Source of the DNA: Elsinoe ampelina
Taxonomy: Eukaryota
DNA length: 64,000 nt
Direction: 5' to 3'
Assembly (NCBI GenBank): GCA_010093995.1
Contig: ML992501.1
Location: forward strand, 1,731,583-1,795,582
Shown here: positions 1,360 through 51,981 of the stretch, one piece after another
How positions within the stretch are numbered: the stretch's first letter is position 1
Layout of the letters: every line of letters begins with the position of its first letter
Notes under the pieces: model-generated
Told to the model about the DNA's origin: nothing
Seen by the model: only the letters and a program-made list of their open reading frames with translations
Databases searched by the model: none
Made by a program: the position numbers and the translations under genes

Positions 1360-1908
1360 ATGCCTTTTAGTTGTTAAAGGCATAGTAAATCTAGTATATC
1401 TATACGAAAGAATCTCTTAGAGTTTATTAAACTATTTAGAACTAATATACTATAGGCTTATTCTTGTTATAAATTAAAGAGGCTAGACTATAAGGTCTAT
1501 ATTCGGTCGGGTATCTATAGCTAGTATATTATAAGTAACTACTTAAGTTATAATATTTAAGTAATAAAATTAGAATAGTAGTATCTCTAGTCTAAGTATA
1601 TTTATTTACAAAAGGAATTAGTTATAGCTAAGGCTACTAGAAAGAAAGCTAAAGAAGCTTATAAAAAGGCAAAAGAGACTTATTAAAGAGCTATAGGTAA
1701 TAAGCTTTATCTATATAAAGAGATATAGAAATTAAAGAATAAGGCAGAGAAAGTAATCTTTCTAGAGAAGATCTATATTTAAGTCTTAGAGTAGGAGGAA
1801 ATACTATTATTAGTAGATCCCGTCCTACTATAGAACTAGTAATTATTTATACTTAACTCTAATTAGAGTTCCTTATTTAGTAATAATTAAGGTACTTCTT
1901 TTAGCTAA
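1360..1908 (+). pseudogene. Antisense accessory gene of Gypsy A2: Zn2Cys6-like finger plus coiled coil (RIP-disrupted)
   Basis: ATG at 1360. All stops in this frame are TAA/TAG and thus RIP-revertible. Consensus with the 31223 copy gives ...CSRCKSKGLDCKVHVRSGVCGQCIASNHSSCDVQVTKSEWQRL..RLRKEL..ARKKAKEAHEKAKEAHQRA (C-x2-C-x6-C-x8-C-x2-C-x7-C; Cys inferred from TAT/TAC). End approximate. Confidence 0.7.
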
Positions 1909-4900
1909 GTAGTCTTCCTTAGATATTCTTGTTTTTGTTTAGTATTAGTAGTATTAGGCCTACCTAGTTAGTTTACTTAGGATAGGTTTTTAGTCTAGTA
2001 ATCTAGAATTACTTACGAGGTAAGGTGTTTCTCTAGTTCCTATATTACCTTACTATACTAATGTTCTTTCTAGTAGATAAGATAGTAACGTTTTTCCCTT
2101 ATAAATTTATAATATAAAACTCTTTTAATTTTATACTATAGCTCCTATATTTCTTTATCTAGTTCGATAGGTCTAGGTACTATATCCTATAGTACTTTCT
2201 CTAATAGTAATATATAAAAGACTAAGTAGATCCTTATATACCTAGGTAGTTCTAGTTTATATACGTTTTTGTTTTTCTTTTCTAGGATCTTAAAGGGTCC
2301 TAGTTTAGTGTAGTTAAGTTTCTTACTTAGTCGTTTCGTTTTAATGTTTTTACTAAGAAAGTAAACTTTCTCTCTCTCTTATAGAATTAGTCCTATAATT
2401 CTCTTCTAGTTAGTAAACTCTACTATTCTTTATAATATAAATACTATATTATAGTATAGCTAGTTATGTAGTTTCTTAATATTAGCTACTAGTATATTAG
2501 CATCCTTAGATATTAGCTTAATTCTAAGTGTATTATAGTATAGATCTAGGTATATTCTATAGTTTACGTAGAATAGTAAAATTCTATTTACTAACTTTCT
2601 ATTATTAATAGTAAGCTCTACGAGTAGTAATAGTATTACCTATAAGTCTTGCTTATAGTTTAGGTAGCATTATAGGTACTATTCTAGTACTTAATTTACT
2701 TGTTTAGTTTATTCGTCCGTCTATAGATAAAAGGAGATTAATAGCTTATATTTAACTCCTAGTAGGTCTATAAATAATTATTAGAATTATAACATAAATA
2801 GCTTATCCCTATTAGTTATTAGGTCTTATAGTACTCTATGTTATAAAATAATTATTCGAAGGAAGGTAAAGGCTATATCCTCGGTAGTTGCTATTGTCTT
2901 ATATAGTATAAAGTAGTAATACTTTATAAACCTATCTACGAGGACTAGAATACTATTATACTTTATACCTATAAGAGGTTCTTCTAATAGTAGTAGAGGT
3001 CCTATAAAGTCTATTATAACTAATTACTATAGTTTATCTAGTAGTAGCAAGAGTTATAGTAGGCTATATAGTTTATATCGAAAGTGTTTAGACTTATAGT
3101 ATATATTATATATAGCAATATATATCTTAATATTGTTTCGGAGTTCTTTCTAGAGGTAGTTTTATATAATAAGTTTAATAGTCTTATTAATTCTACTATG
3201 TTCTACCGTTAGGTTATTATAGTATATTTAAATAACTTCTTTCTTCTATTCTTATATAAGCTCCTAGGTAAAGCTATATAACTACTCTACCTTTAGGTAC
3301 TTATAGACTAGAGCGCCGTCCTACTACTTTAGTATAGAGGCCTCTATTATTATTATGTTTTTTAAGTAATCTAGCTAGCGGCTAAGAGTATCTACTCTAC
3401 TATTCTCTAATCTCTTAATATAGTAGATCTAAAAGTTATAGCTCGTAAGTATTTCTAACTATTAAACCTATTATCTATTAAGAACCTTAGTTGTTATTTA
3501 ATATAGAAGGTTCTTATAATTAGTATAGACTTATACTAGTAAGGTTGTTTCTTCTAGGTATACTCTCTACTTATAGAATACTTCTATAATTATAAGTAAC
3601 TCCTTATTATATATATTATAGTTAAGTTTAGGTCTAATCATTTTTTGTAAGTAGTATATAATTAGGCAGTGTTATTCTTCTATATTCTTCTACGCTAGAT
3701 ACACTTCTATTATAAAGTCTAAGGCATCTATTTCTAGTAGTACTTATTAGTCTAGGTCGAAGAGTACTAGAATAGGTACTATTATAAGCCTAAGCTTTAG
3801 CTCCTTAAAGGCCTATTTACATTTTTCGTTAAAGACAAAGCTAGTTTCTTTCTTTATAAGGTTAGATATTAGTATAGCTACCTTAGAAAATCCTTTAATA
3901 AACTTATAATAGTAGTTAAAGAATCCTAGTAGTACTTAAACCTCCTTAACTATAGTAGGTTCTAGCTAATTGTTTACTAATTTAATCTTCTTTAGATTAG
4001 ATCTAATACTATTAGTAGATATAATATAGCCTAGAAATTGTATCTTATATTTATAAAACTTATACTTAGAGAGCTTTACTAGTAGGTCTTTTTCTTTTAG
4101 TTTCTATAGTACTTTATAAATATGTCTTATATATTTATTATATATCTTTAAGAAGATAATAATATTATTTAAATATACTAAGATAAAGTTATTAAGGTAT
4201 TCTTATAGAGTATTATTAATTAACTCTTAGAAGGTTATAGGAGCGTTAGTTAACCTAAAGAGTATAACAAGGTACTTATATAGGCCCTATTACATTCTAA
4301 AAGCTGTTTTTTACTCCTTGCTCTTTTTTATTTATACTTAATAATAGGCGTTTCTAATATTAATTATAGTAAACTATTTAGCTCTAAGTAGTTAGTCTTA
4401 AAGTTTGTTAATCCTTAGTAAGAGATAGTAATTCTTCCTAGTAAGTATATTAAGTTTCTAGTAATTAATATATATTTATAATATCTTATTCTTTTTAGGT
4501 ATAAAAAGTACTTTATATATAATAGGTAATTTTAATAGTTATATAAATTCTTTAAGTAAGTACTTATCGATGTAGTTCTTAAAGACATTCTCTTTCTATT
4601 TTAATAGTAGTATAAGACCTTAATAGTGTATTAGGGATTTACTCTCTTTAAAAGGTATTTTGTAATTCTATAGTTTATATTAGAGTAAGGCTATAATACC
4701 TTCTCTTTCTTTAAATAAGTCCTTAAAGTCTTTATATTCTAGCGGAAGTGCTTAATTACTTATACTAGCGATAGCTCTAACTATTAGTTATATCTATACT
4801 GTTCTTATAGTTAGTATCTATAGAGCTAATTATGCTCCCTATATCCTATAATTATACTTAGGAAATTTAAGTGTTTCTTTAATCTAGTCTACGTTTAGAT

Positions 4901-7380
4901 TATATTATTAAAGCTAGTCTATGCTAAGTACTATATTATACTATATATTAACTATATTAATTAATCATTTTTCTATATATGTTTTAATTTAGATTATAAC
5001 GTTTTATAGTTCCTAAGTAACTTTTCTATTCTTTCCTATAGGAGTTCTATCTACTATAGTAAGTAAGTAAGGTAACTCCTTCTAATATTAATAAGGTTTA
5101 AGCTAGTTAGCAATTGTTATAGAGATATAGCTATAGTTAGCTCCCGAATCTATTATTACTCTTACTTTATTCTCTTATATCTAGACTTTTAGTATAAAGT
5201 AGTTTAATATATAGATCTTTATTATATTAAGACTTTAGCTAGTATTATCGTCTTACCTTATTAAGTAACAACTAGCTAGTTTTTTATTATTGTAGCTCCT
5301 TAGATAAGTAGCTAATCCCTTCCTGTATGTATTTATTGTTAGTACTATATCTATTAGGCAAGTTATGTTTTGTTACTATTTAATATAGCAAGGTAAACTT
5401 CTAGCGCCTAAGTTCCTTAGTAACTATAAAGTCTAATAATTCTCTACTAGTTATACTAAGTAGTATTATATACCTATATTAGTATAACTATTCCCTCTAG
5501 GTATAGCTAGGTATTAGTATTAAAGACAAAAGCAAGTTATATAGATTTGTCTTATCGTGTCCTATTCTAGTAGTAGGTATATATTATTATATTATTCCTC
5601 TATATCTCTATAAGGTATGCTTTAAGTTATCTACCTAGTAGTAGTACGTTGTTATTATTATTATTAGATAAGTCCTTATCTATGTTATTACATTATAGTT
5701 ATTCGAGATATTCTTTATTATATTTCTCCTTATCGCTACTATCTCTAGTATAGTTATAATTAGTAAAGCTACACTAAGTATATTCTCTTACTTAGCTATA
5801 GAGAATAGTACTATCTATTTTAATTACCGAGAAGTCTATAGTATATTTAAGACTAATAGTGTCTTCTCTAAGTATATTATATAAGTAGATAGTATAGTAC
5901 TATTTGCAATTTAGATTTATACATTTCTAGAGCGATATATAGTATACCTTTCCTTATAGTTCGCTATAAGAGCTAAAGGTAAGGCTACTATATTGTTATA
6001 TAGTACTTACATTCTAATACTTCGTCTTAATAATTATATATTAGTAATTGTTACTAACTACCTTCTAAGGTTAGTTAATGTTATTACTAATTATAGAGAG
6101 CTCTTTTAGGTTAGGTTCCTAGTCTAGCTATTTCGTTAGCTACCTATACTTAGATAGCTTATATAGAAACTAACTAGATCTCTACTTGTCTAATAAGTAA
6201 ATATAATAAGAGTTATTATAACATGCTATCTATAATAGTATTACGTATTAGCTTTGTTGTTTACTATTAGTTATAGAGATATTAAGCGTAATATTCGGAG
6301 AGAATTCTCTTATCTCTCGAGTTGTTATAGATTTCTTTTATATTTCCTTACCTACGCTAAAGGTCGTTAGGTCTTCTATAGTAGTGTTAGCCTTTTTTTC
6401 TACTAGCCTAGCAACTATTATGTATAATCTATTAGCTAGCGCCTCTTATTAGTAGTCCCTAGCCTAATACCTAGGTCTTTTATACTTAAAATATAGATTT
6501 TCTTATCTATACTTCTCTCTCTCTTTTCTACTAAGGAACTTTCCTCTATAGCTGTAGCCTTATACCTATAAGAGGTAGCCTTTATATATAGTATTAAGTT
6601 CTATAGAGTCTCTATAGTTCCGGGAGAAACGTATATACCTAGTATTTGCCTTATATCCTTTATAACGCTCTATATATCGTTTGTAAAGTCTATTATCAAT
6701 AGTAATTATAGTGTCTACTAGTTCCTAAAGGCTATTAGGTAGCTCGGGTATTATTTAGTCTTTAACTAAGTTACTTAGTCCTTAGTAAAATGCTAAATGT
6801 TTAGCACTATTATTCTAATCTAGGTATATTACGAGCTATTAGAACTAGGAATAGTACTAGGCTATAGACCTACGTTGTTATAGTTATTAAATCTTTGTTA
6901 TAGCAACACATTCCTTATTAGATACGTTAAAGACTTACTTAATCTTTGCCTAAAAGATACTAAAGCTCTTAAAGATAGCCTTTATATCTAGGCTTAGTTA
7001 TCTATCTAGGTAGCTACTTATATAAGGCTTAAACTACTTAAAGGTAGCGCCCTTAAGGTATATCCTAGTATAAAGAACCTTTACTACGTCGTTAGCGTAC
7101 TTATCCTCTTCTAGAGTAAAGAAGGCTTTAAGTTAAATAAGGAAGCGCCTTAAGTAGGCGTAGTCTCTATAAAAGGGTTCTACCTCTAGCTTAGGCTTAC
7201 TTTGTCCTTTCCCTATACTAAGAGACCTTCTATATTCGCTTAAGGTTAAACTAGTAGTAGATATGTTATTAATAGTAAGCTTCCCTAGCTTACTAGTAAT
7301 TAAAGATACTAATAGTAACTTAGAGCAAGAGTTACTTATTAACCTTATAGCGTACTATACTATAGTAAGGATAGTTAAAA

Positions 7381-7843
7381 TGTTACGAACTGTCTAAATA
7401 TAGCCTACGTAAGTAGTCTAAGCTAAGCTAAGAACGAGGTAGTTCTACTTCTATAGTAGTATAGTACTAAGGTAAGAGTTAGAGAAGGTAGGTCTTATAG
7501 ATAATAAAGTACAATTAGATAGTATTATAAAGGCTAGCCTTAGTAATACTAGTGTTTACTATCTAGATAAGGTTAACTATAGTACTTATATAAGGTAAAG
7601 ACTATTCCTATATATATATATTCTCTATTGTGTTCTCTATATGCTCTATATACTTCGTAGTAAGAGTCGGAAGTAATATAGAGTACACGTCCGCTAGTAA
7701 CCTATATACTCTATAGTTTTAGAGGTAGAGCCGCTAGAGAAGATAGAGAACTAGGTAAACGTTAGGCTAGGTTACGTAATAACCTTAGTAGTTTAATTAG
7801 TCCTAACGTCCCTACGTTCTAGCTGTCCTACTAGTTTATAACA
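7381..7843 (-). repeat. 5' LTR of Gypsy A2
   Basis: TGTTACGAAC...TATAACA followed by TSD CTTAC. Confidence 0.95.
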
Positions 7844-9146
7844 CTTACCTAGGAGCTTACGTAAGAATAGAAGTAAGAGGTTATTTAAATATACTATAAT
7901 AACCTAATAGTAGGACATAGTAGAATCGATAAGACTATTAAACTTATTATATAAAACTACCTATAGAAAGAACTCTAAAACAATGTTAAAATATATATCG
8001 TAGTATACGATATATACTATAAGTCTAAGCACTTACGACATAAGCTATATAGCCTACTACAACTGTTACTACTACTAGATAGACTATAGTAATTAGTTAT
8101 AATAGACTTTATAGAACTACTACTACTATTAGAAGAGCCTCTTATAGGTGTAACGTATAATAGTATTCTAGTTCTTATAGATAGATTTACGAAGTACTAT
8201 TACTTTGTGCTATATAAGATAATAGTAACTACTAAGGATATAGCCTTCGCCTTCCTCTAGACAATTATTTTATAATATAGAGTACTACGAGATTTAATTA
8301 CTAATAGAGATAAACTGTTTATATTATAGTTCTAGTAGTTATTCGTGGATCTATTAGGAGTTAAATATAAGCTATTAATCTTCTTTTATCTATAAATAGA
8401 TAGACAAACTAAACGAGTAAATTAAGTACTAGAGTAGTACCTACGCTACTACCTAAACTATAAGTAAGACTTATAGGTAACGCTATTACTACTTATAGAA
8501 CTTGCTATTAATAATAGAAAGTTAGTAAATAGAGTTTTACTATTCTATATAAACTATAGAATACACTCGGATTTATACTATAATATACTTAGAATTAAGC
8601 TAATATCTAAGAGTATAAATATACTAGTAGCTAATATTAAGAAGTTATATAACTAGCTATACTAAGATATAGTATTTATATTACAAAGAATAGTAAGTTT
8701 TGCTAACTAGAAGAGAATTATAGAACTAATTCTATAGGAAGGAGAGAAAGTTTACCTCCTTAGTAAAAACATTAAAACGAAACAACTAAGCAAAAAACTA
8801 AACTATACTAAGTTAGGACTCTTTACTATACTTAAAAAAAGGAATAAGAATATATATAAACTAGAACTATCTAGAAGTATAAGGATTTATCTAGTATTTT
8901 ATATCTCGTTATTAGAACCTACACTACGTAACACCTAACTAGGACTAACTAAACTAGATAATAAAACCTAATAACCCTGTTATAAAATTAATAAAATACT
9001 AAAAGATAAGCTTATTCGGGGCTACTACTATTACTTAATCTACTAGAAGGAGTATTAGTATAGTAAAGACATATAGGAACCTTAAGAATATCTTATCTAG
9101 ATATTAATCTAAAACTACTAATAAAGTCTATCTCGGAAAAAGCGGA

Positions 9147-9632
9147 CTAGTTACTAGCGTCGATAAAGAGATCCTCCGGATATACCGCTATAAAACTAGA
9201 AGCCTCTATATTATTCTCTAGCTTACTAAGAAGCTTCGCTTCCTAATTTACTATATTACTTTACTACTCTATTATCTTTTCTAGCTTCTTCTCTAGCTAA
9301 TCTACTACCTTCTAGGCCTCTAGAATCTTATAAGTAAGAGACACTAGGCGCGACTAGGCACTTTAGAATTGCCGCTATAGATCTTGCTTCTTATTCTCTA
9401 GACAACGGAATTTAGCTTCTAAGAAAGTTCCTCTATAGGATAAGTTTATCCTAGTATACTAACTATACCTTATATAACCTTATTATATAATATAAAGATA
9501 GCTCTCCTTTAAGTATTTAGAGTATCGAGCTATCTCTTTAACTTTAATTCCTATTATAGTAATCTTTTTAGCTAGGTTCTTCTAGTAAATAGTAGAGGAA
9601 AGTGTTAATAGTTTCCTAATGCCTCGAGGTAT
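9147..9632 (-). pseudogene. Antisense accessory gene of Gypsy A1: a different Zn2Cys6-like finger plus coiled coil (RIP-disrupted)
   Basis: De-RIP reading MPRGIRK..SST..RKNLAKKI..G....ARCSKCLKESHLC....GY.RCGQCTR.NLSCGGTFSEAEFR.LENKKQDLQRQ...LEKKLEK (C-x2-C-x6-C-x8-C-x2-C-x6-C). Only TAA/TAG stops; start is ATA (inferred ATG). End approximate. Confidence 0.65.
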
Positions 9633-9731
9633 TATTAGCTATTATAAGAAAAAGAGAACGAAGGGAATTAAGTAAGTACCTATCTAGTTTTAAACACGTT
9701 AAGGACGACTATACTATAGAAGGGGAGGTAA

Positions 9732-10152
9732 TATTACAAACCGGTAGAAAGAAAGGTAACTTTATTCGCTTACGACGCTCTAATAGAGTTCTAGCGTAGA
9801 GAAGAAAGTTACGTAACTAGAAGCGTATAGGCCGAGGACCTAAACGCTCTACTATACTCTATAACGCTCTTATATAGAGTACTCCTAGATTATTATAGAT
9901 CCCCTAGGGAATCTTAAGTATATAGTAAGTAGTCCTTACCCTATATAAGTACTATAGTTAACCTTGTCTAGATAGCGAACACTAGTATTACTAAGGCTAG
10001 CCTTTATAATACTATCTAATTGTACTTTATTATCTATAAGATATACCTTCTCTAACTCTTCCTTAGTACTATACTACTATAGAAGTAGAACTACCTTATT
10101 CTTAGCTTAGCTTAGACTACTAGTATAGGCTATGTTTAGACAGTTCGTAATA
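9732..10152 (+). repeat. 3' LTR of Gypsy A1 (R-U5 shared with A2, U3 unrelated)
   Basis: ~9925-10152 is the reverse complement of 823-~1055, while 9732-~9920 does not match. Preceded by PPT. Confidence 0.9.
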
Positions 10153-11227
10153 GGTAGTTACTAGATGTCTATATATTAAAGCTAAAGTACACTATTAAAA
10201 CTACTATTTAGAGGTACTTAGTAATAACACTAGTAGCACTTAAATAAGCTAAATAAATCTACTAGCTAATAGAGGTATAGGATAGTATAGTCCTATCTAG
10301 ATAAGGGCTAAGATACTAAAGCAAGTAGTAGAGGTAGAGGCTTTTAATCTTACTAAAGGAAATATTATTATAAACTATCTAATAAAGAAGTAAGCCTCTA
10401 AAAGTTTAAGCTTAAAACTAAGTAGTAATTATATTAATAACTATAGGAGTTATACCTTAAGAAAGGCTAAAGCTTACTACAATTAATAGTCTAGTAGCTA
10501 GTATAACCTTATAGCTTAGATTAAAGATCTTATACTACTTCTTAAAGTAGTTAATTAGACTATTAGTTTACTAAGGAGTAGGTATTATATACCTTATAAC
10601 TTGCTTCTTTTTTAAGTAGTATAACTTATATAGCTAATACTTAACTCTATAGAAGTCTTTAATACGCTAGCTATATATCTATATAAAGCTAATCTTTATT
10701 ATAGAGAATTTAGTAGTATAATAGCCTTTAAGGGAGTATATAGTCTAGTCTACCTTAGCGTATAGATTATTAGGTTTATAATAACTTAGCCTTACCTTAG
10801 AGAGGCCTTATAGTCTAGCTAATAGTCTAATTTTATTATTATAATAGATATTAGCTATTTCTTAAAGGAATAATAGCTCACTTAAAGCTTTAGAGGCTAT
10901 AGTTAAATTTTAGTAAATTTTTAGAGTAGTGTTTATTCTAATAAATAATTATAAATTATATACTAAAGTACTAAGAGAAGGAGATAAGGTTTAGTAAGTA
11001 TCTCTATACTAATTAGAGCTCGATTTTGCTATAACTCTATACCCTTAGCTATCTACCTTATTATACCCTTAATTAGCACTACCACTTTTATAATTATTAT
11101 TAACAATATCTAGCTTTATAGATTAATTAATTAATGCCAAGGAAAAAATCTGATCATAAGATATTAATTGATTAATCAATTAATAAGTGGCAATACAATC
11201 AATCATGATTGATTGTAGTCTTCACTG
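10153..11227 (-). mobile_element. hAT-superfamily DNA transposon, 5' end and N-terminal transposase relic
   Basis: Terminus CAGTG (minus strand from 11227) with subterminal CAATCAAT/ATTGATT repeats at 11120-11215. De-RIP BED finger WLCKLC...TNGLIDHFKKQHKI at ~10525-10640, NISFSKIES..L..LLQYL at ~10310-10370, catalytic VHFSFDxWTSSN at ~10157-10192. Confidence 0.8.
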
Positions 11228-11228
11228 C

Positions 11229-11654
11229 CTAAAAGTCTACACCGGAATCCCATAATTGTGCGAACACCTCTAGATCGACTTCTACAGGCTTCTGTGGCTT
11301 CCAGGCCTGAACTTTGAACGGGTTGAGGGCACCGGCGGGTCGGCGGGCGAAGGTGGTGATGTAAAATGTCAGTTTTGTCCGCTGGCTCAGTAGGGGGAGC
11401 GCTTCAGAGTAGATACGTTGGCATGTCCGTAACAGAGTTGATGAGCGCTGGATGGGCACATAGTGACCAGGACGATTCCATATGCTGGAGCGAGGGTATC
11501 GATATTTCGTAGACGGAGTGGGCGACACGACTAGGTCGAAGATGTGGCGCCGTAGTTCTGGTGGGAGCCCGAAAAGTGGACTCTCCAATTGAGGCGATGC
11601 GGGCTTATGCCTGGGACTCAGAGTCGTGGTTCGAGATGCTGCATGACGGTGCAC
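11229..11654 (-). pseudogene. F-box-like domain protein fragment, truncated at the hAT terminus
   Basis: QLESPLFGLPPELRRHIFDLVV...LLRTCQRIYSEA is typical of fungal F-box-like proteins. No in-frame ATG. The frame ends 1 bp from the hAT end. Confidence 0.65.
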
Positions 11655-11774
11655 GATTACCGCCTTTCCGCAATTTCAAGTTTTTGGTGAACGCTTGCCA
11701 TGTTACCTACGGATGGTAGATATAGCTTACGTTTATAAGTTATATAAATTGCTATATGCGTAGGAGCGCACGAA

Positions 11775-15317: not shown

Positions 15318-15528
15318 CCTATATCCGGGAGAGGGTGCTCGGTGTAGGGCAGAAGTACCCTTCATGAGTCTGCTGCGGTGGAGACACACGGTGTTGCAGG
15401 GAGAATGGGCGAGCGGCCAGGGGAGGCGATGAGAGTCCTGTATGGAGCAGTCCATTAGTCGAATCCAGTCCTTTGTATATGCCTGTCCTTTTGAATTGTC
15501 GGCTCGTGACCCCAGTGCTGTGCCGAGT

Positions 15529-16476: not shown

Positions 16477-19400
16477 TGTAATAAAGGTAGAATATTAGAG
16501 CTAGGAAGACAAGTGTATAGGAGTAGAACAGGTATTATACTAGTATACCCTTAATTGTCGTAAGACTAATCTCTACTCTATCTATTCTATAGGCGAGAAG
16601 TGTTTTATTCTCCTACGGAGAATAGTATCTCTAGAGTAAGCTAGCGTAGCGTACTTACTACGTTAGTTCTTATAATTATTTCTCCCCTTTAAGAGGCACG
16701 CTCTTACGCTTATAAGCCTCGATAAAACCTAGAAAACCTAGTATAGAAGAAAACTAAGAAAGAGCGTCTCGCTAGTACCTCTTAGGCGTAGTATACTCTT
16801 TACATATATAGCACGCCTATAGTAGCCTATACTATTCTTCGTATGCTAGATATAGTAATAATAGTATAATTCTTTATATATAGAATATAGCGCTTCTACG
16901 TTATTATCTTTATATATAAGGATCTACTTATTATTATATACTACTACCTATTATTCTCTAGATTAGGCTTAGCTTAGAGCTAGATATATACCTTTCTCTT
17001 CTCCTTCTCTTCTTCTTTTCTCCTTTATAATACTTCCTTCGCGTAAGTATTCTACTTAATACTAGCTCTATACTTATATAGGTCTAATACTATACTAGTA
17101 ACCTATTTTAGGTACTATATAGTATAGACTAGGCCTTACTAGCCTAAGGGCTAGTAGAGGAGGCTTAGTATATATGCTAAGCCTACGCTACTATAGATCT
17201 AGCTATTAGGCTTATCTATTTAGTTGTTTATTTACTAACCTAGTATAGCACCTACGTAGTAATTTTTTTTTTTCCTTTATTATTCCGGCCCTACGCTAGC
17301 TTACTTTCTATACACTTACGTACTTTAATAACTATAGCTCCTAAAGTTCCTAAGGAGTAAGTATTATATATAGTACTTACGCTACGCTAGCGCTAACCTT
17401 TTATAGACCTTATAAGAGCAATTTTACTAACTAGAACTAGTACTCTATACTATACTTATGCTATGCTATTGCTATTAATAAGTACCTCTAGCTCGAAGAC
17501 GGTATACTTCCTATTAAGAATCTCCTCTACTAGATTACTAAGGCTAAGGCTACCTACTATAATTGTTATAGTTATAGTAATAAACACTACTACTAGGTAT
17601 ACTTTACGCCTACGCCGTATCTACTTTATACTAACCTTAGTAGCCTACTAAGCTCGACTCTAAGGATTAAGTTACTACTAAGAAGCTCTAGGATAAATAC
17701 TTCGCTATACATACGCTAACCCGTAATAACGCTACTACTCCTAAGAAGAACATTATTCTTCTAAAGCGCCGGATTACTACCTATACTAACTATATATACG
17801 AGAAGGCTAGCGCTAAGCGTACATAGAGTAAGTCTAACACTAAAGATAAGAGTAAGGTAGTTAATAAGAGTAATAGTAATAGTATAACTTCTTTATGCTA
17901 TAATAGCGCTATTGCTACGCTCTCTGCTTCTAAGGTCGATACTAAGTAGCTAGCAAAAGTGCTACGCCTAGGTATAATTAGTAACACTAGCTTTATACTT
18001 AAGGCTTTAGCTAATTATATAAGTCTAGAAGTGTGCCCCTATAATACCTAAGCTACGCTAACTTCCTCGTAGGTAGTTACTAAGAATAAGTAAGCTACTA
18101 CTACGTAGATAATCGATAATACTATAAGGGTGCTAACTAGACGTATTAATAGTATTAAGGAGAATAATAAGGATAAGAGTAAGGTAGATAATGTAGATAG
18201 TTAAGGTAGGGGAGGCTAGAGCGCTATACCTACGCTATACCCTCTTTACTTTAGTATAATTCTATAGTTTTCGCTACGCTAGTGTTCTCCCTACGTAAGC
18301 TAATAATACTCTAAGCTAACCTAGCGCTATACCTAGGTACTCTTTACTTCGAAATTTATGCCTTTAACTTATTAATCCTAAGTGTATCTAGAGTATTTAG
18401 CTAGTGCTATACTTACGCTAAGCTACCTCGTATTTATATAGTAATTCCTTAGCATTTATAAGGTTTTTTGCTAGCTTCTATATACTTTCTTCTATAGGGT
18501 AACTCTACTACTTTACTAGGTAGTATAGCGCCTTTAGAGTACTAGTATAGCTCTTGTTAAGGATACGTTTAATAATGTATTCTTCTTACCCTTCTACCTT
18601 TAGAGGCAGTAGGCGTATACCCTTACTACGCCTATATAGCTCTAGTAATACAATATTAAAGACGTTATAGATTAGCTTTATTTTATCTAGTAAGTATAGC
18701 TTATACACCTACGTACTAATTTGTTATACAATTATAAATAAGCTAATATACTTAGCTAATAGCTTATAGCTAGGTCTAGCGCTATAAAGGTTCTTAGTAC
18801 TAAGTATAACCTCGTCGCTATCGTAGAAGACTTTTACTTATTAATCTTTATTATAGGCTAGCGCTTAGTCTTTCTATACTTTACGTAAGTGTCGAGCGAG
18901 CTCCGTACGCGTTTTAGTAATAGATTATACTTAGTTGTTAACTAACAAGTTATACGCTAGCGCGTAGCTAGGTAGCGCTAGCGCCTTAATGTTATTAGGT
19001 AGGTACATCTCTTACGTAAATAAGAACTACACTAGCGTAGCGTATAGTAATACTTAATACGTATTATTATACACGAATTGCGCCTACTTAACCTAGTATA
19101 GCTAGTCCGTCTAGTAATAGTCGACAAAGTAGCGTAGGTACTACTCTAGCGTCTAGTTTTGTCTTTTAGTTTAGCTATCTATCTACAGATAGAAACTAGT
19201 ACTAAGCTTACGTTACGCCTTCTAGCGCTAGTATAGCGCACTCTAGAATTTGCTTATAAAGATAGACTCTCTATCTAAAACTAGTATCTTTAGCGTTCCG
19301 AACAACGTTATAATATCTGTCTTAAATAGATTAGTAAAGTCCCTAGTGTTAAGCTTAGTTAACGTCGGCGTATAGATACTAAACTTAGACAAGTAATAGA

Positions 19401-30683: not shown

Positions 30684-33600
30684 TGTTACGAACTGTCTAA
30701 ACATAGCCTACGTTAGTAGTCTAAGCTAAGCTAAGAACGAGGTAGTTCTACTTCTATAGTAGTATAGTACTAAGGTAAGAGTCGGAGAAGGTATATCTTA
30801 TAGATAATAAAGTACAATTAGATAGTATTACAAAGGCTAGCCTTAGTAATACTAGTGTTCGCTATCTAGACGAGGTTAACTATAGTACTTATATAAGGTA
30901 AGGACTTATTCCTATATACATGTGTTCTTTACTATATACTTTATATACTCTACGTACTCCGTAGTAGAGCCGCTAGAGAAGATAGAGTATACGCTCGCTA
31001 GTAACCTACGTGCTCTATAGTCTCCGGGGTAGAGCCGCTAGAGAAGATAAAGAACTAAGTAAATATCGGGCTAAGTTATATAATAACCTTAGTAGTTTAA
31101 TTAGTCCTAACGTTTCTACGCTCTAGCTTATCCTACTAGTTCGTAACACTACTCTCCTCCTTTAATCGAGTTATTCTAACGAGTAAGTATTCTTCTCTAT
31201 CTTTACGCGCTATATACTAAATATATCTCCTAGTCGTTAAAGACATAGTAAATCTAGCATATCTATACGAAAGAATCTCTTAGAGTTTATTAAACTATTT
31301 AGAACTAATATACTATAGGCTTATTCTCGTTACAAATCGAAGGGGCTAGACTATAAGGTCTATATTCGGTCGGGTATCTATAGCTAGTATATTACAAGTA
31401 ACTACTCTAGTTATAATATTTAGGTAACAAAATCGGAATAGTAGCGTCTCTAGTCTAAGTATATTCGTTTACGAAAGGAATTAGTTATAGCTAAGGCTAC
31501 TAGAAAGAAAGCTAAAGAAGCTTATAAAAAGGCAAAAGAGGCTTATTAAAGAGCTATAGGTAATAAGCTTCGCCTACGCGAAGAGATATAAAAGTTAGAG
31601 GATAAGGCGAAGAAAGTAATCTCTTTAAAGGAGACTTGTATTTAAGTCTTAGAGTAGGAGAAAATACTATCGTTAGTGAATCCTGTCCTACTATAGGACT
31701 AGTAATTATTTATGCCTAACTCCGACTAGAGTTCCTTATTCGGCAACGATTAGGGTACTTCTATTAGCTAAGTAGTCTTCCTTAGGCGTTCTCGTTTTTA
31801 TTTAGTATTAGTAGCGTTAGGTCCGCCTAGTTAGTTTACTTAGAATAGGTTTTTAGTTTAGTAATCTAGGATTACTTACGAGGTAAGATGTTTCTCTAGT
31901 TCCTATATTGCCTTACTATACTAATGTTCTTTCTAGTAGATAAGATAGTAGCGTTTTCCTTTTATAAGTTTATAACGTAATACTCTTTCTATCTTATACT
32001 ATAGCTCCTATGTTTCTTTATCTAGTTCGATAGGTCTAGGTATAGTATTCTATAGTACTTTCTCTAGTAGTAATATATAAAAGACTAGATAGATCCTTAT
32101 ATGTCTCGGTAGTTCTAGTTTATATACGTTCTTGTTTTTCTTTTCTAAGATCCTAAAGGGTCCTAGTTTAGTATAGTTAAGTTTCTTACTCGGTTGTTTC
32201 GTTTTAATATTTTTGCTAAGGAGGTAAACTTTCTCTCTCTCCTTTAGAATTAGTCCCGTAATTCTCTTCTAGTTAGTAAATTCTGCTATCCTTTATAATA
32301 TAAATGCTATATTATAGTATAGCTAGTTATATAGTTTCTTAATGTTAGTAACTAGTATATTAGCGTCCTTAGATACTAGCTTAATTCTAAGTGTGTTATA
32401 GTATAGATCCGAGTATATTCTATAGTTTATATAGAATAGTAAAACTTTATTCGCGGACTTTCTATTATTAATAGCAAGCTCCGTAAGTAGTAATAGTATC
32501 GCCTATAAGTCTTACTTATAGTTTAGGTAGCATCGTAGGTACTACTCTAGTACTTAATTTGCCTATTTAGTTTATCTGTCCGTTTATAGATAAAAGGAGG
32601 TTAATAGCTTATATTTAACTCCTAGTAGATCCACAAATAATTACTAGAATTATAACGTAAATAGCTTATCTCTATTAGTTATTAGGTCTCGTAGTACTCT
32701 ATATTATAAAACAATTATTCGAAGGAAGGTAAAGGCTATATCCTTAATAGTTACTATTGTCTTATATAGTATAAAGTAGTAATACTTCGTAAACCTATCT
32801 ACTAGGACTAGAATACTATTGTACTTTACACCTATAAGAGGTTCTTCTAATAGTAGTAGAGGTCCTATAAAGTCTATCGTAACTAATTACTATAGCTTGT
32901 CTAGTAGTAGCAAGGGTTATAGTAAGCTATATAGCTTATGTCGTAAGTGCTTAGACTTATAGCATATATCGTATACAGCGATATATATCTTAACATCGTT
33001 TCGGAGTCCTTTCTATAGGTAGTTTTATGTAATAAGTTTAATAGTCTTATTAATTCTACTATATCCCGTAGTTAGGTTATTATAGTATATTTAAATAACT
33101 TCTTTTTTCTATTCTTACGTAAGCTCCTAGGTAAGGCTATATAATTGCTCTACCTTTAGGTACTTATAGACTAAAGCGCTATCTTACTACTTTAGTATAG
33201 AGGCCTCTATTATTATTATATTCTTTAAGTAGTCCGGTTGTCGGCTAAGAGCGTTCGCTCCGCTATTCTCTAATTCCTTAACATAGTAGATCTAAAAGTT
33301 ATAGCTTATAAGTGTTTCTAACTATCGAACCTGTCGTCTATTAAGAACCTTAGTTATTATCTAATATAATAGGTTCTTATAGTTAGTATAGACTTACATA
33401 GGTAAGGTTATTTCTTCTAGATATATATGCTATTCGCGGAATACTTCTATAATTGTAAGTAATTCCTTATTGTGTATATCGTAGTTAAGTTTAGGCCCGG
33501 TCATTTTTCGTAAGTAGTATACGATTAGGTAGCGTCGTCCCTATACGTCTTTCTACGCTAGACACGCTTCTATTATAGAGTCTAAGGCATTTGTTTCTAG

Positions 33601-36600
33601 TAGTGCTTATTAGTCTAGGTTAAAGAGTACTAGGATAGGTGCTATTATAAGTCTAAGCTTTAGCTTCTTAAAGGTCTACCTACATCTTTTGTTAAAGACA
33701 AAGCTAGTTTCCTTTTTCGTAAGGTTAGATATTAGCGTAGCTATCTTAGAGAATTCTTTAACAAACTTATAGTAGTAGTTAAAGAACTCTAGTAGCGCTT
33801 AAACCTCCTTAACTATCGTAGGTTCCGGCTAGTTATTTACTAACTTAATCTTCTTCGGATCGGGTCTAATACTATTAGTAGATATAACATAGCCTAGAAA
33901 TTATATCTTGTACTTATAGAACTTACACTTAAAGAGTTTTACTAGTAAGTCTTTCTCTTTTAGTTTCTATAGCACTTTATAAATATATCTTATATGTTTA
34001 TCGTATATCTTTAAGAAAATAACAATATTATCTAAATATACTAAGATAAAGTTATTAAGGTATTCTTGTAGAGTATTATTAATTAACTCTTAGAAGGTTA
34101 TAGGAGTGTTAGTTAACCTAAAGGGTATAACGAGGTATTTATATAGACTCTATTATGTCCTAAAAGCCGTTTTCTACTCCTTGCTCTCCTTTATTTGTAC
34201 TTAATAATAGGTATCTCTAATGTTAATTATAGTAAACTATTTAGCTCTAAGTAGTTAGTCTTAGAGTTTGTCGATTCTAGGTAAGGGATAGCAATTCTTC
34301 CGGGTAAGTGTATTAAGTTTCTAGTAATTAATACATATTTATAACGTCTTATCCTTCTTAAGTGCGAAAAGCACTCCGTACATAATAGGTAATTTTAATA
34401 GTCGTATAAATCCTTTAAGTAAGTACTTATCGATATAGTCCTTAAGGACGTTCTCTTCTTATTTCGATAGTAGTATTAGACCTTAATAGTGTATCGGGGA
34501 TTTACCTTCTTTAAAAGGTATTTCGTAATTCTATAGTTTATATTAGAGTAAGGCTATAATACCTTCTCTTTCTATAAATAAGTCCTTAAAGTCTTTATAT
34601 TCCGGCGGAAGTACTTAATTACTTACGCTAGCGATAGCTCTAACTATTAGTTATACCTATACTATTCTTATAGTTAGTATCTACGGAGCTAATTATGCTC
34701 CCTATATTCTATAATTATACTTAGAGAATTTAAGTGTTTCTTTAATCTAGTCTACGTCTAGATTATGTTATTAAAGCTAGTCTATACTAAGTACTATATT
34801 ATACTATATGTTAACTATATTAATTAATTGTTTTTCTATATATATCTTAATTTTAATTATAACATTTTATAGTTCCTAAGTAACTTTCTTATTCTTCTCT
34901 ATAGAGGTTCTATTCGCTATAGTAAGTAGGTAAGGTAACTCCTTCTAATATTAATAAGGTTTAAGCTATTTAGCAACTATTATAGAGACGTAGCTATAGT
35001 TAGCTCCTAAATCTATTATTGCTCTTACCTTATTTCCTTATATCTAGGCTTCTAGTATAAAGTAATTTAATATATAGATCTTTATTATATTAAGGCTTTA
35101 GCTAGTGTTATTATCTTACCTTATTAGGCAATAACTAGCTAGTTTTTTGTTATTGTAGCTCCTTAGATAAGTAGCTAATCCCTTCCTACGCGTATCTACT
35201 ATTAGTACTATATCTATTAGGCAAGTCGTGTTTTATCGTTGTTTAATATAGCGAGGTAAACTTCCGGTACTTACGTTCCTTAATAACTATAAAGTCTAAT
35301 AATTCTCTACTAGTTATACCGAGTAGTGTTATATACCTATACTAGTATAACTATCCCCTCTAGGTATAGCTAGGTATTAGCGTTAAAGACAAACGCGAGT
35401 TAAGTAGATTTGTCTTATCGTATTCTATTCTAGTAGTAGGTGTATATTATTATATAGTTTCTCTATATTTCTATAAGGTATGCCTTAAGTCGTCTACCCG
35501 GTAGTAGTACGTCGTTGTCTTTGTCGTTAGATAAGTCTTTATCTATATTATTACATTATAGTTATTTAGTATATTCTTCGTTGTATTTCTCTTCGTCGCT
35601 ACTGCCCCTAGTATAGTTATAGTTAGTAAGGCTACACTAAGTATATTCCTATACTTAGCTATAGGGAATAGTACTACCTATTTTAATTACTAAGAAGTCC
35701 GTAGTGTATTTAAGACTAATAGCCTCTTCTCTAAGTATATTATATAAGTAAATAGTATAGTACTATTCGTAATTTAGATTTGTGCATTTCTAGAGCGATA
35801 TATAATATACCTTTCCTTATAGTTCGCTATAAAGGCTAAAGGTAAAGCTACTATGTTATTATATAGTACTTACGTCCTAATACTTCGTCTCGATAATTGT
35901 ATATTAGTAATTGTCGCTAACTACCTTCTAAGGTTAGTTAATGTTACTACTAATTATAGAGAGCTCTTCTAGGTTAGGTTCCTAGTCTAGCTATTTTGTT
36001 AGTTACCTACGCTTAGATAGCTTATATAGAAACTAACTAGATCCCTGCTTGTCTAATAAGTAAATATAACAAGAGTTATTATAACATGCTATCTATAATA
36101 GCGTTACGTATTAGCTTTATTATTCGCTATTAGTCGTAGAGATATTAAGCATAACATCCGGAGAGGATTCTATTACCTCTTAAGTCGTCGTAGACTTCTT
36201 CTATATTTCCTTACCTATGCTAAAGATCGTTAGGTCTTCTATAGTAGTATTAGCCTTTTTCTCTACTAGCCCGGCAACTATTATATATAATCTATCGGCT
36301 AGCGCCTCTTATTAGTAGTCCCTAGCCCGATGCCTAGGTCTTTTACACTTAAAACATAGATTATCTCGTCTATACTTCTCTCTCTCTTTTCTACTAAGGA
36401 ACTTTCCTCTACAACTTCGGCCTTGTATCTATAAGGGGCAACCTTTACGTATAGCGTTAAGTTCTATAGGGTCTCTATAGTTTCGAGAGAAACGTATATA
36501 TCTAGTGTTTACCTTATATCTTCTATAACGTTCTATACGTCGTTCGTAAAGTTAGTTATTAATAGTAATTGCGGTATCTACTAGTTCTTAGAGGCTATTA

Positions 36601-37708
36601 GGCAGCTCGAGTATTATTTAGTCCTTAACTAAGTCGCTTAGTCCTTAGTAGAATACTAAATGTTTAGTACTATTATTCTAGTCTAGGTGTATTATAAGTT
36701 ATTAGAACTAGAAGTAGTACTAGGCTATAGACCTACGTTGTTATAGTTGTCAAATCTTCGTTATAGTAACATATTTCTTATTAGATACGTTAAAGACTTA
36801 CTTAATCTTTGTCTAGAAGATGCTAAAGCTCTTAAAGATAGCCTTTATATCTAGGCCTAGTTATCTATCTAGGTAGCTACTTATATAAGGCTCAAACTAC
36901 CTAAAGGTAGCGCCTTTAAGGTGTATCCTAGTATAGAGGACCTTTACTACGTCGTTAGTGTACTTGTCTCTCTCTAGAGTAAAGAAGGCTTTAAGTTAAA
37001 CAAGGAAGCGCCTTAAGTAGACATAGTCCCCGTAGAAGAGTTCTACTTCTAACTTAGGCTTGCTCTATCTCTCCCCTATACTAAGAGACCTTCTATGTTC
37101 GCCCGAGGTTAAACTAGTAGTAGATATATTGTTAATAGTAAGCTTTCCTAGCTTACTAGTAATCGAAGATACTAATAGTAACTTAGAGCAAGAGTTACTT
37201 ATTAACCTTATAGCGTGCTATACTATAGCAAGGGTAGTTAAAATGTTACGAACCGTCTAAATATAGCCTACGTTAGTAGTATAAGCTAAGCTAAGAACGA
37301 GGTAGTTCTACTTCTATAGTAGTATAGTACTAAGGTAAGAGTTAGAGAAGGTATATTTTACAGATAATAAAGTACAATTAGATAGTATTATAAAGGCTAG
37401 CCTTAGCAATACTAGTGTTCGCTATCTAGACGAGGTTAACTATAGTACTTATATAAGGTAAGGACTTATTCCTATATATATGTATTCTTTACTACGTACT
37501 CTATATGCTCTACGTACTCTATAGTAGAGCTACTAGAGAAGATAGAGTACACGCCCGCTAGTAACCTATACGCTCTATAGTCTCCGGGGTAGAGCTACTA
37601 GAGAAGATAGAGAACCGAGTAAACGTTAGGCTAGGTCGCGTAATAACCTTAGTAGTTTAATTAGTCCTAACGTCTCTACGCTCTAGCTTGTTCTACTAGT
37701 TCGTAACA
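30684..37708 (-). mobile_element. Full-length Ty3/Gypsy, second copy of subfamily A2 (element D), less mutated
   Basis: 465-bp LTRs at 30684-31148 and 37244-37708. TSD CTAAG. Colinear with 823-7843. Confidence 0.96.
31223..31771 (+). pseudogene. Antisense Zn2Cys6-like/coiled-coil accessory gene, second A2 copy
   Basis: Same length and frame as 1360-1908; retains more ancestral codons (CGT TAC AAA TCG AAG GGG; CTT CGC CTA CGC GAA GAG). Confidence 0.7.
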
Positions 37709-44300: not shown

Positions 44301-44575
44301 AGTAGTAGAATAACTAGATAATTTAATAGCTCTATTACTTAGTCGCGGTCGTTTTAAAGTCTCGATATAGTAATTACAACTAGTAAGATAAGAGGTTAAT
44401 TACGTCTATTTATTAAAATATCGAGACTTAGAAGAAGAAGAAGAAAAGCTAGTATATAAAGCATATATAATATCGAGGGTAGAGCGGCTAGAAGTCTAGG
44501 CTATAATACCGAGATTACGTAACTAATTCCTAAACTAGATCCTAACTAAATCTAGTTCGTATCTATCTCGTATTA
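38316..44575 (-). mobile_element. Full-length Ty3/Gypsy chromovirus (family E), RIP-inactivated
   Basis: 205-bp LTRs at 38316-38520 and 44371-44575. TSD CTATT. PPT at 38521-38535. RT IYLDDILIY relic at ~41137-41165. Chromodomain relic at ~38620-38770. No extra 3' region. Confidence 0.93.
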
Positions 44576-50269: not shown

Positions 50270-50822
50270 GCGGATTATAAGAGGTCTATCTTAACCTTAT
50301 CCTCTAAATCTTTAGGCTTATCTAGCTCTACTAGCTTAAGGATAAGATTGCTACGTAGGAACTCTATTATATCTTTGTTAGACTCCTAAATATAAATAGT
50401 AGTATTAAAGGCACGCTAGGTTAAAATAAGACTCTTAATAAGTAGAGTATAAGAGACATTATACTACTATAGGTTAGCTATTATAGTAATAACGTAGAAT
50501 AAAAACATATAAAGACATATTTAGTATAGAAGTGTTAATAGAGATAGTAGCGGAGGAAAGTGCCTATATTATTATTATAAATATATTAGGACTAGGCCTA
50601 CTTATAGTTAAGGTATATAGTAGTCTAGTAGCAAATATAAGACTTATACTAACAGTAGTACACTAGCGTAGCGTAGTTAGAAGAGGTCTAGAACTGTAGG
50701 AACTTAAGCTTAGAGCTCTTACTATAGTTATAGTTATAGTTACTAGAGAAGTCTCTACCGAATCTAAGACGGCATATCGCCTCTATAATAACATTAGTAA
50801 TCTTTAGAGACTCGAAGGACAT
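50270..50822 (-). pseudogene. Possible second antisense accessory gene of Gypsy F (Cys/His-rich, one intron)
   Basis: ATG at 50822, frame with only TAA/TAG stops, intron-like 50467-50520 (ATATGT..GCTAAC..TAG). Boundaries uncertain. Confidence 0.4.
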
Positions 50823-51289
50823 AGCGTAGCTAGAGTTATTAATCTAATTAGTAGAGATATAGTAAGTTATAATACTATAAGATTCTAATATTGTAGTATA
50901 GAAGTTAAGTAGATAGAGAGAATAAGGGGTCTAAGAAGATTAAGGAGAAAGAGAAAGAAGATAGTATATATATGTTACTTCTCTATTATCTAAACAATAA
51001 TACTCTCCTTAATAATACCTACCTCGATAATAGACCTTTAATAATATAATAATACCTAAGGGGATAATAGGCCCTAATAAAGAAGCAAGAGTAATCTAAG
51101 AGCTATAGCTTCGCTAGGGGCTATAAAATAAAGAACTTAGGCAAAAAGAAGAAGTAGAAAGTAAAAAACTCTATAAACTCTAAAAGGCAAAATCTATCTC
51201 TAATAGCTCTAAGCTATTACATCGACTAAGGAACCTATACTTATACCTAGAAACCTAAATACTATACTAGTAACTACCTTAACTCCCTA

Positions 51290-51981
51290 AATCTCTTAAG
51301 CTCCGCTAGTAATACTACTAGAGGCTAGCGTAGCAGCGTAGGTAAGAGCCTTCCTAGTAGGCTAGGCGCTAATAATCTTTGCTAATAACTCGTTAGTCTT
51401 TTAGCTACTAGTAAGTAAGGTAGCAAAGTCCTTATAGGTCGTAGGCGAATTGTTATTAGAGTTAGATTCTTCTCTCTTTCTCTTCTTCTCGGTAGAAACG
51501 TATTTAGCCTTAAGAGTAGTAATATATCTCGCTATTATAGTATAGGCGTCGTAAACGCGCTACTTGTTAGCTAGTATAGCGTCTAACTCCTTATCCTTAT
51601 TAGTACAATAATAGGTGTAGATAGCCTTATAAGTAACTCTAGTAGCCTCGAGTTTGTTACTATAGCGCTTAGGGAACTAGAAGTATTAGCATTGCTTCGA
51701 TAGAGAATAGGCATTAGACCTACGAAGGTATAGCTATTATAGCGGAGCTTATAGAGCTAGTAGAAGGCATAATTATTCTACTCCTTATAGTAGCGAGGGT
51801 CGTTAGTAAAGTTAGTATTGTCTAACATTATATATTTAATAGTAAGCTTAAGGTAGTTAATATAAGAGCTCTCTATAATAAGAACGATATTAGCGCGACT
51901 AGGAGATAATAGTAGAGTACCTTCGCGCTAGATCTAGCTATAGTTAGGTCTACTAGAGGTAGTACTTACTAGAGAAGACAT
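51290..51981 (-). pseudogene. Antisense, intron-containing accessory gene of Gypsy F (six-Cys finger, KKRKR NLS-like motif)
   Basis: ATG at 51981. Introns 51873-51920 and 51677-51723 (GTAGGT..GCTAAT..TAG). Inferred C-x2-C-x20-C-x9-C-x2-C-x6-C with an intron two codons after the last Cys. EKKRKREE at ~51468-51491. 3' end approximate. Confidence 0.65.

Follow-up and report, generated by a model that had tools for sequence, protein, structure and literature searches.

A stretch of 64,000 nucleotides from Elsinoe ampelina (assembly GCA_010093995.1, contig ML992501.1, positions 1,731,583 to 1,795,582; hereafter the window, numbered from its first letter) holds three copies, A1, A2 and A3, of a Ty3/Gypsy retrotransposon family that we call family A. 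Between pol and the 3' long terminal repeat (LTR), these copies have a frame on the strand opposite to gag-pol, and we judge it quite likely that the frames of A1 and A3, and probably that of A2, are what is left of an accessory gene with a cysteine-rich, zinc-cluster type of product.

Of the 64 kb, about 53 have a low GC content (0.22-0.35), and these AT-rich sequences are set between gene-bearing stretches with GC about 0.5 that occupy 12-16 kb and 58-64 kb. LTR retrotransposons stacked on one another form the AT-rich portion, and C-to-T and G-to-A transitions typical of repeat-induced point mutation (RIP) have degraded them. Over 53 kb of AT-rich DNA, TGA and TCA are each seen 18 times, as against 2872 occurrences of TAA and 3060 of TAG, and once TAA and TAG are read through, all six frames stay open for some 3,700 codons (bases 1-11,200). 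Tyrosine makes up 8.3-9.0% of each of the six frames. When the window is translated in six frames and searched for the Gal4-type spacing with either Cys or Tyr allowed, 12 matches are found, three of them the family A copies, one a host gene and eight due to chance.

A preliminary description of the window had proposed that three families, A, B and F, each carry an antisense zinc-cluster gene, and the frames and Tyr patterns on which it drew are present in all three. The arguments built on them have fared unevenly. TAA and TAG are indeed the only stops in the frames named, but this is true of all six frames and so carries no weight, and stop density marks out no frame in the accessory regions. 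The Tyr spacing is also there, yet every frame is rich in Tyr and the eight chance patterns are of the same kind, so that spacing alone has no weight either. The helical, charged tail exists as well, but it recurs in other plus-strand frames of the same purine-rich stretch. Pfam gave no match to the frames with stops masked as X. Family A is lifted beyond chance because intact relatives exist outside the window.

Copy A1 is nested in the pol gene of A2 (Table 1). Despite RIP, its own pol on the minus strand still matches the Pfam families RVT_1, RT_RNaseH, RT_RNaseH_2 and SH3_Tf2-1. The antisense frame opens with an ATG at 1360, which lies 60 nt past the polypurine tract and 75 nt from the LTR edge, and it carries the motif Y-x2-Y-x6-Y-x8-Y-x2-Y-x7-Y at 1459-1551 (+). 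Copy A3 has the same motif at 31322-31414 (+) and a start codon that now reads ATA. In both copies all six motif codons are TAT or TAC.

Copy A2 belongs to a related subfamily and was split by the insertion of A1. The two are 83-93% identical across pol and over the LTR's 3' half, but homology breaks off at 9080, with no alignable DNA from the end of pol to the middle of the LTR; this unaligned segment is the one that holds the accessory gene and U3. The A2 frame has the motif Y-x2-Y-x6-Y-x8-Y-x2-Y-x6-Y at 9435-9524 (-), and its N-terminus, 'IP...SST..KNL', agrees with the 'MP..SST.RRK.L' of the family. As read, it scored -4.8 bits, no match, when a profile of the intact relatives was run against the six-frame window. 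In a crude control, every Tyr in all six frames was replaced by Cys before the profile search, and the sole new positive was A2 at 9213-9602 (14.7 bits, E 6.5e-6, profile positions 7-141). Judged on these sequence features, the A2 frame is probably a relic of the same gene. With the in-frame stops listed in Table 1 and every Cys gone, all copies of the gene in the window are dead. A set of contigs from one DNA run (X1, n=21,760), compared with 1200-19000, showed A>G at no fewer than 390 places and T>C at no fewer than 378; none of the differences listed fell within 1271-2040, and the comparison yielded no evidence of de-RIPed sequence.

Table 1. Coordinates of the features discussed; the set comprising the short elements, A, B and F was defined by self-comparison and tblastn.
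Feature	Position	Strand	Remarks
A1, full-length RIP-degraded Ty3/Gypsy chromovirus, family A	823..7843	-	LTR pair, self-BLAST, target-site duplication
A1 target-site duplication	818-822 and 7844-7848		CTTAC, 5 bp
A1 3' LTR	823..1285	-	
A1 polypurine tract	1289-1300		
A1 antisense accessory relic	1360..1908	+	183 codons, 17 TAA/TAG stops
A2 left part	2-822	+	
A2 right part, integrase onward	7849..10160	+	tblastn, blastn; includes partial 3' LTR 9918-10160
A2 accessory relic, diverged, probable	9147..9632	-	13 in-frame stops
A3, second full-length family A copy	30684..37708	-	88% identical to A1
A3 target-site duplication	30679-30683 and 37709-37713		CTAAG
A3 3' LTR	30684-31148		
A3 polypurine tract	31152-31163		
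A3 antisense accessory relic	31223..31771	+	183 codons, 17 stops
Element B	16484-23777	-	
B frame of the preliminary description	17334..18204	+	not supported as zinc-cluster gene
Element F	44793-52711	+	
F frame of the preliminary description	51290..51981	-	not supported as zinc-cluster gene
Two short LTR elements	24678-29908 and 38316-44578		without long 3' region
Pieces of interrupted 2.8-kb repeat	16149-16482, 23771-24676, 29910-30683, 37708-38315, 44576-44795		
Unbroken inverted copy of 2.8-kb repeat	55702-58512		94-98% identical
Genuine host Zn2Cys6 motif	60442-60531	-	CDPCRSTKVKCTKERPVCVRCQQRNLECVY

Intact relatives of the family A gene

The stop-masked antisense frame of A1/A3 was used as query in an exhaustive HMMER search of 1.84 billion representative proteins. 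Twelve proteins of 67-211 amino acids matched at E<=1e-3, the best at 1.6e-14 and 70.1 bits, and eight of them, 175-211 amino acids long, align along most of the query. RIP is absent from nine of the twelve, which read Cys at all six positions where A1 and A3 have Tyr, as well as His at the Tyr of 'KVY', which confirms the Cys residues that the preliminary description had presumed behind the six Tyr codons. The remaining three are RIP-like, with Tyr at some or all of the Cys positions, or are fragments. The in-frame stops of the window copies align with Gln, Trp or Arg of the relatives, and the frame is collinear with the nine intact proteins from the start codon through the tail.

In the reciprocal direction, a profile of the nine intact proteins matched A3 and A1 only in the six-frame window. 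The match to A3 (31235-31672) reached 84.1 bits and E 3.2e-27, and that to A1 (1378-1803) reached 53.2 bits and E 9.4e-18; with a profile of 70 members the two relics scored 68.0 and 39.8 bits, respectively. Each profile match stays in one frame, and A1 and A3 are therefore without frameshift, one of the outcomes by which the preliminary description would have been refuted.

The intact-member profile gathers 73 proteins at E<=1e-3, mostly from metagenome and read-archive assemblies, none of them with a precomputed Pfam domain in the collection searched. Two are NCBI records of Lithohypha guttulata, and one Lithohypha guttulata member bears the automatic UniRef name 'Zn(2)-C6 fungal-type domain-containing protein'. 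In the ESM Atlas, the member P0002 finds unnamed Ascomycota clusters only, with scores of 0.91-0.92. No longer or fused form was found among 8000 candidates, which is weak evidence.

The genomic setting of the gene is constant. A scan of metagenome contigs gave 60 loci, and in 42 of these a convergent Gypsy pol on the opposite strand ends within 1.5 kb of the accessory match. Fifteen loci have less than 700 nt of downstream DNA and are too short to judge, so that pol is present in 42 of the 45 testable loci; the antisense frame downstream of a Gypsy integrase, on which the preliminary description had staked its case, is thus kept. The other three loci have room downstream yet lack pol. Where both genes are present, the end of the accessory frame overlaps the end of pol by up to 134 nt or is separated from it by a gap of up to about 110 nt.

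Many of the loci are whole elements untouched by RIP, with GC about 0.5 and open gag and pol frames of 1150-1260 amino acids. In two of them, L003 and L010, Pfam recognises RVP_2, RVT_1, RT_RNaseH, Integrase_H2C2, rve, SH3_Tf2-1 and Chromo in pol, and Ty3_capsid and zf-CCHC in gag. The order of protease, reverse transcriptase, RNase H, integrase and chromodomain in the carrier pol fits a Ty3/Gypsy chromovirus.

Selection on the gene can be read from the loci themselves. In 36 of them the accessory frame is open for at least 140 amino acids (152-290), and nearly all of these start with MP or MS. From 199 unsaturated pairs, 18 with a dS (synonymous divergence) of 0.05-1.5 were kept, and the ratio of non-synonymous to synonymous divergence (dN/dS) had a median of 0.15 and a range of 0.03-0.52, with 17 of the 18 pairs below 0.5. 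The open frames and the dN/dS values therefore mark a real gene under purifying selection. The accessory gene is real, conserved and borne by a retrotransposon, and the Tyr codons of the window sit at the Cys of its relatives. We regard it as likely that the antisense frames of A1 and A3, and probably A2, are the RIP-killed form of a genuine accessory gene belonging to an Ascomycete Ty3/Gypsy chromovirus lineage.

Two further observations concern the assembled loci. Contigs of 6.1-7.4 kb (L010, L013, L015, L027 and L032) end in identical direct repeats of 123-174 nt and other contigs are circularly permuted elements; both would follow if the assembly of whole young elements had collapsed their two LTRs. 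Two of the three loci without pol, L024:4673-7086 and L025:9563-11976, are the same sequence, in which the gene lies between 330-nt direct repeats that are 95% identical and 1.75 kb apart; its protein, P0008, also occurs on a 1.1-Mb NCBI contig. This arrangement suggests a non-autonomous element that has lost its interior except for the accessory gene.

The protein: cluster, fold and predicted dimer

The intact protein is about 175-215 amino acids long. It begins with an N-terminal helix, SST.RRK.L..FI..FG. The cluster, C-x2-C-x6-C-KVHVRSG-x-C-x2-C-x6-8-C, comes next and is joined by the short linker D[VI]RVT.SEW/F to a helix of 85 residues, after which the protein ends in a tail of acidic and aromatic residues, LALSP.TW.A.DGLPD.FW. 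Around the cluster, the relatives without RIP read ...MP..C-S-x-C-x6-C-K-V-H-V-R-S-G-x-C-x2-C-x6/7-C-D-[VI]-R-V-T-x-S-E-[WF]-x-R-L.... The motif is intact in 33 of the 60 loci, which reduce to 29 distinct domains, and every one of the 29 has the form C-x2-C-x6-C-x8-C-x2-C-x6-8-C (spacing 2,6,8,2,6 in 20 domains, 2,6,8,2,7 in seven and 2,6,8,2,8 in two). All 29 fall inside the Gal4-type consensus, C-x2-C-x6-C-x5-12-C-x2-C-x6-8-C.

Among Pfam families, Zn_clus is matched by the most members (23 of 70 at E<=1). DUF3716 (PF12511), with a cut-off of 22 bits, is the sole family whose cut-off any member passes, namely P0042 at 22.9 bits; four further members score 17.1-19.5 bits, and 10 of the 70 match at E<=1. 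The DUF3716 alignment covers the N-terminal helix and the entire cluster, at profile positions 3-59 of 59. A sequence search of the Protein Data Bank with the cluster returned Leu3 only (E 0.69).

Structure prediction was carried out with AlphaFold2 on full-length P0001, the closest relative of the window copies, using an alignment of 70 rows, and separately on an 85-residue domain. The predicted local distance difference test (pLDDT) was 84.3 for the full protein and 91.1 for the domain. The models show the N-terminal helix, a short helix at each CxxC pair, a short linker and a single helix at residues 75-159. In both Foldseek searches all rows down to rank 26 are Zn2Cys6 DNA-binding domains, among them Leu3, Gal4, Hap1, Pho7, Put3, Ppr1, Lac9 and AlcR, or entries of CBF3 and the kinetochore, every one at E>=0.09, so that no single match is significant; the Lac9 match (1cld) has a root-mean-square deviation of 2.1 A over 33 residues and a TM score of 0.66. 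The CBF3 subunit Cep3 is itself a Zn2Cys6 protein. A wider structure search with the whole model found coiled coils only, at residues 72-165.

A homodimer model scored 0.52 against 0.00 for the best control. Of 30 proteins solved as pairs, 21 attain this mark, and of 23 solved as single chains none does. The dimer runs share at least 46% of their contacts with a pLDDT of at least 70, and the best contacts pair residue 88 with 123, 81 with 130 and 109 with 109. The residue sums of 211-218 therefore describe an antiparallel coiled coil with the clusters at opposite ends. The predicted dimer is centred near residue 109, and its zinc clusters would lie about 85 helical residues apart. The model supports binding between chains.

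We think it likely that the cluster adopts a Gal4-type Zn2Cys6 fold and that the protein dimerises through its long helix. The six-Cys spacing and the predicted order of cluster, linker and long helix are common to this protein and to Gal4-type factors such as Gal4, Leu3, Hap1, Ppr1, Put3 and Pho7. It differs from them in its length of about 190 amino acids, in scoring below the PF00172 threshold in all 70 members, in an invariant KVHVRSG loop, an additional N-terminal helix and a predicted antiparallel dimer, and in being encoded by a retrotransposon rather than as a host gene. The Gal4-type reading in the preliminary description draws support from the spacing, the fold ranking and one automatic UniProt name, and falls short at the Pfam threshold. 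We term the domain Zn2Cys6-like because the spacing and the best fold likeness agree with that class, yet the Pfam threshold is failed and DUF3716 is borderline.

Several results weigh against reading the family A frames as relics of a gene for a Gal4-type factor. A2 becomes significant solely after the replacement of Tyr by Cys, a transformation of our own choosing; in the unaltered frames A1 resembles A2 no more than shuffled sequence does (z 0.65, with 74 of 300 shuffles reaching the score). A word-indexed homology search with A3 brought up 69 candidates, none at E<=0.01. The Zn_clus (PF00172) cut-off of 21 bits is reached by none of the 70 members, the best being P0078 at 16.9 bits and E 0.0071, and hhalign of the domain profile against the host zinc cluster of the window gave a probability of 4%. 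Gal4, Ppr1 and Put3 dimerise through parallel coiled coils, from which the antiparallel predicted dimer differs. The LTRs of six intact relatives hold no recurrent pair of CGG-type half-sites. In contigs that we took by guess for RNA (X3 and X4, no run being recorded as RNA), only short divergent pieces at LTR edges were found; these contigs covered host genes.

Some of these points would fit a different product, a zinc-binding adaptor of the DUF3716 kind that works through protein or RNA contacts rather than as a transcription factor with sequence specificity. Such an adaptor could help the chromodomain integrase to target integration, control copy number or interfere with host silencing. P0042 passes the DUF3716 cut-off where Zn_clus stays below its own, CGG half-sites were not seen in the six LTRs, and an antiparallel dimer with clusters at opposite ends of a rod of about 85 residues would suit bridging better than the binding of short palindromes. 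A class II transposon of Zymoseptoria tritici, REP9, encodes the DUF3716 proteins REP9-1 and REP9-2, and the domain, about 59 amino acids, Cys-rich and borne by fungal transposons, has no known function in the passages of that source concerned with it (PMC8232023). It is like the family A domain in these respects, with the differences that only one of 70 family A members passes and that REP9 is a DNA transposon; we infer a relation between DUF3716 and Zn2Cys6. However, DNA-binding Zn2Cys6 domains monopolise the fold ranking, the layout of cluster, linker and long helix copies the DNA-binding module of Gal4-type factors, and the basic residues between the second and third Cys (consensus C.KH.RVC) count against an adaptor. 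We consider an adaptor unlikely.

Families B and F and the rest of the window

Integrase domains are matched in B and F, where chromodomain-like ends put the end of pol near 18380 in B and near 50150 in F. Each leaves an unexplained stretch between the end of pol and the 3' LTR, 1.7 kb in B (16682-18380) and 2.35 kb in F (about 50150-52495). The Tyr pattern lies at 17453-17590 (+) in B and at 51730-51864 (-) in F. Pfam matched nothing in six frames of either 3' stretch, and the two stretches show no similarity to each other.

It could be argued that an antisense, Cys-rich DNA-binding factor is encoded in B and F as well, whether a distant member of the same family or one of a second family, made hard to recognise by RIP and divergence. 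In the six-frame window the exact B/F pattern is confined to these two sites, both instances open with Y-x2-Y-x6-Y preceded by K, and both elements have the long unexplained 3' regions. The two frames resemble each other with z 2.9 against residue shuffles, three of 300 shuffles reaching the score, and since the pol genes of B and F are only distantly related, a faster-evolving partner gene could escape detection. This likeness appears compositional, because out-of-phase antisense pairs score 104, 94 and 91 against 95 for the frames proposed. No family-profile match emerges from either region even with every Tyr read as Cys, and the low stop count seen in F recurs in three frames there. About 1.1 kb separates the F frame from the end of pol, as against the tail-to-tail layout of the intact family A relatives, and the B/F pattern was drawn up only afterwards, from sequence that is locally rich in Tyr. 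A further point against B and F as zinc-cluster genes is the gap of 20/21 residues between the third and fourth positions, which is outside the Gal4 consensus.

A factor of this type in B and F is thus improbable, and their Tyr patterns have most likely arisen by chance in RIPed DNA that is rich in Tyr. The call of B and F as zinc-cluster genes in the preliminary description finds neither frame-specific similarity nor a profile match to sustain it, and its 'three families' with a shared design of complex retrotransposon are too wide because B and F drop out. A different, unrecognised gene in the 3' regions is conceivable because 1.7 and 2.35 kb are unexplained, but we give it little credence. 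For family A itself, the reading as a chance Tyr pattern with spurious open reading frames (ORFs) as database matches can draw on the roughly eight chance patterns and on frames that are all open when TAA and TAG are ignored, but it is refuted almost entirely by the reciprocal significant match, the full-length collinearity, the constant genomic context, the 36 open frames of at least 140 amino acids with dN/dS about 0.15 and the confident fold prediction.

One copy of a 2.8-kb repeat has taken up five insertions, namely B, an element of 5.2 kb, A3, an element of 6.3 kb and F. The repeat looks like an insertion hot spot (region 16149-58512), perhaps from the targeting of heterochromatin by chromodomains. 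Host genes occupy the flank of normal GC at 58984-64000 (-), with the genuine Zn2Cys6 motif of Table 1. There, a WD-repeat ORF at 62153-64000 (-) runs past the end of the window; we take it to be coatomer alpha.

Possible role, known parallels and meaning

We propose a model in which transcription of the accessory gene would start at an antisense promoter within the 3' LTR or next to it, and the protein would return to the nucleus, where its dimer would bind iterated motifs in the U3 of the element's own LTR and tune transcription of the element. A promoter in this place is suggested because the ATG lies near the edge of the polypurine tract and LTR and the non-coding span is short; in circularly assembled relatives, 376-567 nt separate the start of gag from the start of the accessory gene. 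The model as a whole is tentative, and we would place it somewhat short of an even chance. The acidic-aromatic tail tips the balance slightly towards activation, but the protein may instead be a repressor consisting of a DNA-binding domain only, an adaptor for integration or silencing, or a bridge between two LTRs. The preliminary description had put forward a transactivator, a repressor or an anti-silencing protein as putative functions.

The LTRs offer some sequences that such a protein might recognise. In six relatives (L010, L013, L015, L019, L027 and L032), U3 holds four to eight iterated short motifs, of the types GCTCAG/TGATCA, GCTCTG or GAGAGCA, at 20-120 nt upstream of a TATATAG box, and a CACGTGA box also lies upstream of TATATAG in the U3 regions of the relatives. 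The family A LTR of the window (823-1285 and 30684-31148) has a duplicated 22-nt unit with CGG-N8-CGG after each copy. The iterated U3 motifs and CGG-N8-CGG are, from sequence, candidate binding sites.

A parallel from outside the fungi is HBZ of human T-cell leukaemia virus type 1 (HTLV-1), a vertebrate retrovirus. HBZ is an antisense-encoded nuclear factor of the basic leucine zipper (bZIP) class, transcribed from the 3' LTR. The likeness lies in the position of the gene, antisense and at the 3' terminus of a retroelement, and in a product of DNA-binding type that dimerises, in family A by prediction; HBZ differs in being a bZIP protein that has neither sequence nor fold relation to the family A protein, and antisense transcription from the LTR is in our case only inferred.

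Closer in position is brtn, a gene of the fungal element Boty, reportedly described by Zhao in 2011 (Virology 417:248). In passages that cite it (PMC8365987, PMC7264820, PMC4227169, PMC5987419), brtn is an additional gene of a fungal Gypsy chromovirus, placed after pol and ahead of the 3' LTR and running opposite to gag-pol. The family A gene agrees with it in position and orientation. The preliminary description had cautioned that novelty needed checking, and rightly so, in that Boty already provides a case of a fungal Gypsy element with an antisense gene (PMC8365987, PMC7264820, in the passages concerned). A zinc-cluster reading of brtn was not found in the citing passages. None of the 73 profile matches is a Botrytis record or a BRTN-named protein, with NCBI among the sources; this is weak evidence that brtn is of a different family.

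Plant Ty3/Gypsy elements also have additional antisense ORFs between pol and the 3' LTR, as in Grande1, RIRE2, Retand and PvRetro13 (PMC7264820). In the part of that source devoted to them, these ORFs (aORF-3R) share position and orientation with the family A gene and are conserved within families, with their function given as unknown; they belong to Tat/Retand lineages and not to fungal chromoviruses, and none is described there as Zn2Cys6 (PMC7264820). Our literature search found no paper that joins Zn2Cys6 or zinc cluster with a retrotransposon gene, and in a survey of fungal LTR elements (PMC3248453) the words 'antisense' and 'zinc' occur zero times. If our reading is true, this would be the first retrotransposon-borne Zn2Cys6 protein.

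The window also has a lesson for the study of RIPed genomes. A RIP-aware reading, in which Tyr may stand for Cys or His and TAA or TAG for Gln or Trp, can recover real genes from heavily degraded DNA, but only with intact relatives as backing; the same reasoning gave the two unsupported calls in B and F.

Beyond the relics of the window, it is tempting to speculate about a widespread Ascomycete chromovirus lineage that encodes its own Gal4-type factor from an antisense promoter in the 3' LTR. In such a lineage, an antiparallel dimer with heads about 12 nm apart would bind the U3 motifs and switch the element on or bridge its ends, and the gene, together with DUF3716 genes, would form a transposon-associated zinc-cluster branch and a source of host regulators. 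We hold this wider picture to be doubtful in its entirety. Intact, apparently young elements exist, so that regulation of an element by its own factor can be put to a direct test with LTR reporters and binding assays. The usual view is that LTR retrotransposons depend on transcription factors of the host. If true, an element-encoded zinc-cluster protein would mean self-regulation of fungal chromoviruses, by a logic akin to that of retroviral antisense and accessory regulators.

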